Shown here: positions 58,173 to 58,243 of the stretch, piece by piece
How positions within the stretch are numbered: the stretch's first letter is position 1
Layout: the number at the start of each line of letters is the position of its first letter
From: a virus
Lineage: Duplodnaviria > Caudoviricetes
Length of the DNA stretch: 64,000 bases
Virus record (IMG/VR): IMGVR_UViG_3300021400_000012
Span: 32,001-96,000 of that record
Direction: 5' to 3' (one strand)
The notes under the pieces: generated by a model
Told to the model about the DNA's origin: nothing
Seen by the model: the letters and a program-made list of their open reading frames with translations, nothing else
Databases searched by the model: none
Program-made: the position numbers and the translations under genes

Positions 58173-58243
58173 TGGGGTATCGTTAAATGGCATGACAGGA
58201 GGCTCTAACCCTCCCTTTGTGGGTTCGAATCCTACTACCCCAG
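58173..58243 (+). tRNA. amber suppressor tRNA-Gln (anticodon CUA)
   Basis: Acceptor TGGGGTA/TACCCCA with G73. Anticodon arm GGAGG-CT[CTA]AC-CCTCC. T-arm GTGGG-TTCGAAT-CCTAC. Confidence 0.93.

Follow-up and report, generated by a model that had tools for sequence, protein, structure and literature searches.

A tRNA-Gln-type amber suppressor gene in the tRNA island of a phage predicted to read TAG as glutamine

The phage genome analysed here very probably encodes its own amber suppressor (we put the probability at roughly 0.85): a tRNA-Gln with the anticodon CUA in place of CUG, which would be matured and charged with glutamine by the host and would read UAG codons. The window, by which we mean the whole stretch of 64,000 nucleotides that was analysed, corresponds to bases 32001-96000 of one contig of 127,574 bp. 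The two ends of this contig overlap; it is classed in IMG/VR as having direct terminal repeats and is estimated by CheckV to be 100% complete. Suppressors of this kind, phage tRNA-Sup(CTA) of the Gln type, are established in code-15 phages (bioRxiv 10.1101/2021.08.26.457843; PMC9523058; PMC10607447), among them crAss-like, Lak, Agate and other phages (Borges et al., bioRxiv 10.1101/2021.08.26.457843; Peters et al., PMC9523058). The gene in the window is a further example of this established type from gut and rumen phages and does not alter existing knowledge. The coordinates of the features discussed below are collected in Table 1.

Table 1. Features of the window, numbered from its first base.
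Feature	Position	Strand	Evidence
Amber suppressor tRNA gene, anticodon CUA, tRNA-Gln body	58173..58243	+	ARAGORN, Rfam, fold
Anticodon CTA; loop CUCUAAC, which is the tRNA-Gln(CUG) loop CUCUGAC with G36->A	58205..58207	+	Sequence, tRNA-Gln comparison
99-aa ORF with 2 in-frame TAG, directly upstream of the suppressor	57868..58167	+	
Segment of suppressor and endonuclease gene, no homology to G001	58148..59235	+	blastn breakpoints, flanking synteny
GIY-YIG homing endonuclease gene, 327 aa, TAG-free	58256..59239	+	PF01541 E 1.9e-10; phrog_314, phrog_5123
Other 14 tRNA genes of the window's island, with small ORFs between; none encodes CCA	59606..63639	+	
Replication block (DnaE-type polymerase, RecJ, GyrA, GyrB and others); 0 TAG versus 181 CAA/CAG	11937..28587	-	
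Example client: 1,036-aa ORF with 17 in-frame TAG, end of the morphogenesis arm	1697..4807	+	
Example clients: two BspA-type LRR proteins with 11 and 8 in-frame TAG	39654..42754	+	

Results

The suppressor gene is a canonical tRNA gene of 71 nt. Rfam family RF00005 matches exactly this span over the full length of its model (52.3 bits, E 2.6e-9; gathering score 29), and ARAGORN places a tRNA with anticodon cta at 58172-58244, drawing an additional U.G pair atop the acceptor stem in which the upstream U is the source of the eighth pair. The cloverleaf is also the minimum-free-energy fold of the 71 nt. Its acceptor stem, UGGGGUA/UACCCCA (U1:A72, G2:C71, G3:C70, G4:C69, G5:C68, U6:A67, A7:U66), is followed by the discriminator G73 and joined through U8 and C9 to a D stem of G10:C25, U11:A24, U12.G23 and A13:U22, the 7-nt loop of which (AAUGGCA) carries A14, G18G19 and A21. 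The anticodon stem GGAGG/CCUCC closes the loop C-U-CUA-A-C, the variable loop has 4 nt, and the T stem GUGGG/CCUAC closes the T loop UUCGAAU. With stems of 7, 4, 5 and 5 bp, U8, A14, G18G19, A21 and a UUCGAAU-type T loop, the gene belongs to the canonical elongator tRNA class; CCA is not encoded. A preliminary description of this DNA had reported a clean cloverleaf with CTA at 58205-58207, U1:A72, G2:C71, G3:C70 and G73, every element of which is borne out by Rfam, the fold and a reading of the sequence. The gene would be transcribed from the plus strand as the first of the tRNA island; a scan for promoters and terminators gave only the background level of this AT-rich DNA.

Searches with the tRNA itself returned little. 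Using blastn, the 71-nt sequence had no match in E. coli genomes, a database too large for a query so short, and merely partial matches to the T arm and anticodon arm in phage records. Two pattern searches stayed at chance level: there was no tRNA among the 41 IMG/VR matches to a CUA tRNA with the 5' half TGGGGTATCG, and none among the 67 matches in bacterial genome contigs to the same anticodon arm with CTG. An orthologue of the exact suppressor sequence was not found in G001-G005 either, and there is thus no covariation support for that sequence. The exact 17-nt anticodon arm GGAGG-CUCUAAC-CCUCC (58198-58214) is also present in a further 27 IMG/VR contigs, each about 100 kb long; several of these are TAG-recoded, and the acceptor, D and T arms of their suppressors are unrelated. 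The shared arm suggests either convergent evolution or an exchange of this one arm.

The genome that carries the gene is recoded. As calculated from a greedy non-overlapping ORF set, coding density is 58% in code 11, 63% with TGA as sense and 87% with TAG as sense, a difference that makes code 15 matter for correct annotation. With TAG as sense, 336 in-frame TAG codons are spread over 72 of the 134 ORFs of the complete genome and make up about 25% of the Gln-type codons; the ORFs end in TAA (90) or TGA (44), and the lack of TAG stops follows by construction from taking TAG as sense. TAG accounts for 34-37% of the Gln-type codons in the morphogenesis and tail arms and is absent from the replication block, so that the genes of this block can be read without the suppressor and their proteins could be produced before it accumulates. 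A comparable early/late split of TAG is known for recoded phages (bioRxiv 10.1101/2021.08.26.457843). The anaerobic ribonucleotide reductase ORF, NrdD (8489-10411, minus strand), has a single TAG at codon 15 and a Pfam match that begins at residue 87; its real start is probably later, which would leave nrdD free of TAG like the replication block. Before the window lies a 2,696-aa ORF with 53 in-frame TAG codons (genome 17324-25414, plus strand), probably the tape measure protein.

The meaning of TAG was read from alignments in which the phage ORFs, translated with X for TAG, were set against 23 related loci from IMG/VR; these loci were found via the polymerase, and most of them read well in the standard code. 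At the 31 alignable TAG sites, Gln occupied 70 of 195 cells against a background of 3.4%, with Glu and Lys next, and TAG is substituted in the same pattern as genuine CAA/CAG codons. Gln was favoured over the next residue, Glu, by 149 nats across all cells and by 19 nats with the 31 sites weighted equally, using likelihoods built on substitution frequencies from the same alignments. In a whole-genome comparison of three related genomes, the TAG codons of the phage (G000) stood opposite Q 52, TAG 36, E 17 and K 12 times in its closest relative, G001, and the reciprocal comparison gave a similar picture. As judged from these alignments, TAG is glutamine in the phage and in its relatives.

The body of the suppressor is that of a tRNA-Gln. 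In a sample of 200 Clostridia genomes, the genes that match it best over its full length are those of tRNA-Gln(CUG) (79% identity, E 8.6e-11), which are identical to it in both strands of the acceptor stem, in positions 8-10, in G73 and in the entire 17-nt T arm, and which differ from it in the anticodon loop solely at position 36. tRNA-Gln makes up 14 of the 20 nearest tRNAs, the remainder being tRNA-Trp or tRNA-His whose T arm is identical or similar, and with the anticodon masked Gln has the top mean similarity in a set of 121 phage and E. coli tRNAs. The E. coli genes glnV and glnU (annotated K-12 record) likewise share the acceptor stem, positions 8-10 and G73. On sequence grounds, the suppressor is a Clostridial-type tRNA-Gln(CUG) with the classical supE change G36->A. 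E. coli supE has the same acceptor stem, G73 and U8-C9-G10, and the same single G36->A relative to the tRNA-Gln(CUG) loop, but differs from the suppressor in the D arm, the anticodon stem and position 38; furthermore, supE is a mutant host allele, whereas the phage suppressor is a dedicated natural gene that would serve hundreds of codons. The phage's own tRNA-Gln(UUG) (genome 96764-96841) was considered as a recent source of the gene and rejected, since its body is different.

The preliminary description had named several of these bases as tRNA-Gln determinants, and had taken the tRNA for the decoding machinery of code 15. Identity for GlnRS resides in pairs 1-72 and 3-70, the discriminator, pair 10-25, U35 and G36, and other tRNAs, once turned into amber suppressors, accept Gln (PMC9976931). 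By these E. coli rules, the suppressor has the weak U1:A72 pair, G2:C71, G3:C70 and G73, together with the G10:C25 pair and U35; position 36 is A and not G, an inevitable change in amber suppressors that supE shares. At position 38 the tRNA agrees with its closest Clostridial tRNA-Gln matches in having C, where the E. coli rule has U38. The amidotransferase GatCAB recognises U1-A72 and a D loop without U20B (PMC2811023), and the suppressor has both U1:A72 and a 7-nt D loop lacking U20B. The assignment of the named bases is therefore supported by published determinants (PMC9976931, PMC2811023) and by a bacterial tRNA-Gln(CUG) as the nearest tRNA; the code 15 role gains support from the same ancestry, from the recoded genome and from the alignment of TAG with Gln.

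It is highly improbable that the suppressor inserts another residue, whether tryptophan or lysine/pyrrolysine. tRNA-Trp(CCA) genes have the same T arm and an acceptor stem that differs only at 1:72 and 6:67, but at the first of these pairs the suppressor has U1:A72 where tRNA-Trp has A1:U72, TAG stands opposite W once in 195 cells, and in E. coli a tRNA-Trp amber suppressor is charged with Gln anyway (PMC9976931). Lysine stands opposite TAG at about the background rate. Pyrrolysine is raised by the ARAGORN output label 'tRNA-Pyl', which is due to the anticodon only. The hallmarks of tRNA-Pyl are a 3-nt variable loop, a 6-bp anticodon stem and G1:C72 (PMC7609411), and we rejected this identity in view of the 4-nt variable loop, the 5-bp anticodon stem, U1:A72 and the lack of any TAG-Lys excess.

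ARAGORN finds 15 tRNA genes in the window and 23 in the genome; the 23 are located in 58172-64000 of the window and in 96001-103426 of the genome. The suppressor is the first of the 15, and the gap of 1,362 nt that separates it from the next tRNA gene holds the GIY-YIG gene, which confirms its earlier description as the first tRNA of the island, set apart from the others, and explains the distance by the insertion of a homing endonuclease gene after the suppressor. The endonuclease gene begins 12 nt past the suppressor and is absent from G001, whose polymerase is 87% identical and whose genes flanking the slot are syntenic, including an orthologue of the 99-aa ORF directly before it. Nucleotide homology to G001 extends up to 58147 and is found again from 59236 (blastn). 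At this slot, G001 has only an 88-nt tRNA(CUA) with a long variable arm, unrelated in sequence to the suppressor of the window. The indel is exact relative to G001 119352-119238, homology returning right after the endonuclease stop codon. These breakpoints and the flanking synteny indicate that the suppressor slot is conserved and its occupant exchanged, the occupant here coming with an endonuclease gene.

Such an exchange fits endonuclease-driven replacement of the kind associated with SegB. T4 SegB is a GIY-YIG homing endonuclease encoded inside the T4 tRNA gene cluster. The likeness consists in a free-standing GIY-YIG gene within a phage tRNA cluster and in an adjacent tRNA gene that varies between related phages; in contrast to SegB, homing in the window phage is putative. 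A search of IMG/VR for related loci gave no close relatives of the endonuclease at 58256. The window holds a second GIY-YIG protein (50630-51595, minus strand; 321 aa, C-terminal domain, 5 in-frame TAG), whose counterpart in phage phAss-1 (326 aa, 8 TAG) lies just upstream of tRNA-Leu and two suppressors. We considered GIY-YIG genes as regular companions of suppressors and dropped the idea, the phAss-1 gene, which with its C-terminal domain differs in architecture from the endonuclease at 58256, being an orthologue of the protein at 50630-51595 and not of that endonuclease. The tRNA island also contains genes for a nucleoside 2-deoxyribosyltransferase-like enzyme (PF05014; 61650-62120) and a calcineurin-like phosphoesterase (PF00149; 60302-60862), both on the plus strand.

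The slot bears directly on the alternative that the gene is a recent hitch-hiker with the homing endonuclease, redundant or non-functional, and that TAG is decoded in some other way. The segment 58148-59235 is indeed an indel relative to G001, and in another relative, G003, TAG is read as Gln although no suppressor was detected. Nevertheless, this is the sole tRNA(CUA) in a complete genome holding 336 TAG codons, all canonical tRNA positions are intact, and the slot in G001 also holds a suppressor, with the function conserved at this place and only the occupant different. We consider a hitch-hiker improbable, and a working suppressor the better account of the gene.

The 88-nt suppressor of G001 (L250:6328-6415) is homologous to one of the three suppressors of phAss-1 (L079:443-533) and belongs to a family of long-arm tRNA(CUA) genes of 83-95 nt. 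IMG/VR was scanned with a pattern made up of nothing more than the anticodon arm, a long spacer and the T loop; it did not ask for the motif U-YUG-R, and it matched 77 loci with 47 distinct variable regions, 35 of which contain U-YUG-R. In an alignment of 37 members (the 35 chosen for U-YUG-R and 2 borderline ones), the variable arm forms a 3-bp helix that covaries strongly, with 94% of cells paired and 28 double-sided changes; none of 500 shuffles reached the observed values, and in slid controls the paired share of cells never exceeded 56%. Capping the helix is a 7-nt loop, most commonly CUCUGAA, whose anticodon position holds CUG in 28 members and UUG in 5. CUCUGAA is the anticodon loop of tRNA-Gln, and the true anticodon loop of the long-arm tRNAs is CUCUAAA. 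Their acceptor stems are very diverse, and TAG still corresponds to Gln in G001. It is plausible from this pattern that the variable arm supplies, as a surrogate identity element, the Gln anticodon signal that was lost with the CUA anticodon. This reading concerns the related phages and not the gene in the window, which relies on a perfect tRNA-Gln acceptor stem. The literature searched yielded no description of a second Gln-anticodon-like loop in the variable arm of a suppressor.

Discussion

The suppressor of the window shares several features with those of crAss-like, Lak and Agate phages, namely a CUA tRNA, TAG as Gln in late and structural genes, early and replication genes in the standard code, and no cognate synthetase. 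It differs from them in that the window phage represents another lineage, with a DnaE-type polymerase and probably a Bacillota host, and has no RF2; the body of its suppressor is unrelated to the crAss-like suppressors that were compared, save for an identical 17-nt anticodon arm. Closer in organisation is phAss-1 (OQ749652; Phassvirus group proposed, 'Caudoviricetes code 15 clade'; PMC10607447), which resembles the window phage in genome size, shares a syntenic morphogenesis module with it, reads TAG as Gln, and likewise has a DnaE polymerase, suppressor tRNAs, a large tRNA island and no synthetase. The two phages are nonetheless distant (identities of 35% for TerL, 34% for the major capsid protein and 37% for DnaE), the three suppressors of phAss-1, one of them long-armed, have other sequences, and phAss-1 tRNA genes encode CCA whereas those of the window phage do not.

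Maturation and charging of the suppressor would fall to the host. A domain search of the complete genome found no RF-1/PCRF domain, no tRNA-synt_1c domain (class Ic synthetase; GlnRS/GluRS) and no CCA-adding enzyme domain, and none of the 23 phage tRNA genes encodes a 3' CCA, which leaves all 23 dependent on the CCA-adding enzyme of the host. The earlier observation that the window itself contains no synthetase or release factor holds for release factors and GlnRS/GluRS, and the search it had suggested for RF2 or GlnRS in the rest of the genome found neither. With no encoded CCA, no CCA enzyme and no GlnRS/GluRS of the phage, the host must mature and charge the suppressor: host RNase P, host 3' processing and the host CCA-adding enzyme would produce the mature tRNA, to which host enzymes would then attach glutamine.

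Depending on the host, charging could proceed through GlnRS or through GluRS followed by GatCAB. The preliminary description took both routes to be available to host enzymes; with the GlnRS determinant G36 lost, this is better read as a conjecture than as a result. The cultured relatives of the phage polymerase are Bacillota phages, and the host of the wider group has been inferred as Clostridia (PMC10607447); the host of this phage is probably a member of the Bacillota. When the phage tRNA island was compared with 200 Clostridia, with two candidates scored per genome, the best genomes varied from tRNA to tRNA.

Direct charging by a host GlnRS, in which the acceptor determinants, G10:C25 and U35 would offset the lost G36 as in supE, is a serious but tentative possibility. 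Every acceptor and core determinant is present in the suppressor, CUA suppressors are known GlnRS substrates (PMC9976931), and the gut Clostridia G008, G163 and G192 have GlnRS (694-754 bits with TIGR00440). On the other hand, G129 and G099, the genomes with the closest tRNA-Gln(CUG), and two Lachnospiraceae have no GlnRS above the cut-off. GlnRS charging of the suppressor should also be weaker than that of wild-type tRNA-Gln, because A takes the place of G36, a base that plays a part in both binding and catalysis by GlnRS.

We hold with similar caution that the host may lack GlnRS, in which case a non-discriminating or tRNA-Gln-specific GluRS would add Glu and GatCAB would amidate it. Five genomes (G129, G099, G026, G006 and G007) have GatB (552-588 bits) and no GlnRS, and two of them, G129 and G099, bear the closest tRNA-Gln(CUG). 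The U1:A72 pair and the D loop of 7 nt are as this route would have them, and H. pylori GluRS2 reads chiefly the acceptor stem (PMC9976931). Against it, the GluRS of B. subtilis depends on a modified U34 (PMC9976931), which is absent from a tRNA with C34; the route assumes a GluRS that accepts A36 and the CUA anticodon, a hypothetical step; and glnS may have been missed in small metagenome-assembled genomes.

Once charged, the suppressor would pair with UAG on the ribosome, and the 336 TAG codons in virion, tail and other genes would be read as Gln. A point against this main reading is that one suppressor gene would have to outcompete host RF1 at all of these codons, and we found no anti-RF1 function in the phage. 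The full-length product of the 2,696-aa ORF alone would need near-complete suppression at each of its 53 sites, for which one tRNA gene is not obviously sufficient. G003 is relevant here as well. This genome (L070-L076; 139,076 bp, terminal repeats, 100% complete, 8 tRNAs) has a coding density of 71% in code 11 and 88% with TAG as sense, and neither ARAGORN nor Rfam detects a tRNA(CUA) in it. A complete relative in which TAG is Gln and yet no suppressor is detectable suggests that phages of this clade may be able to do without a suppressor gene of their own, and agrees with published work, where a suppressor could be detected in no more than about 40% of TAG-recoded phages.

A broader scenario, which we regard as speculative and on balance doubtful, is that the host is perhaps Clostridium-like and without GlnRS, that code 15 then operates via GluRS and GatCAB, that suppressors are interchangeable cassettes, and that the loss of G36 has been solved in two ways. 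If true, code 15 based on transamidation would be something not previously demonstrated for any recoded phage, and the two solutions would be a plain tRNA-Gln(CUA) here, linked to a GIY-YIG homing endonuclease, and the long-arm suppressor in the sister phage, whose variable arm retains the Gln anticodon loop (CUCUGAA) intact; either of the two could have displaced the other. The long-arm family with its second loop is widespread and merits a study of its own. With its closest tRNA-Gln coming from genomes that are GatB-positive and GlnRS-negative, the suppressor described here turns charging in recoded Bacillota phages into a testable question.
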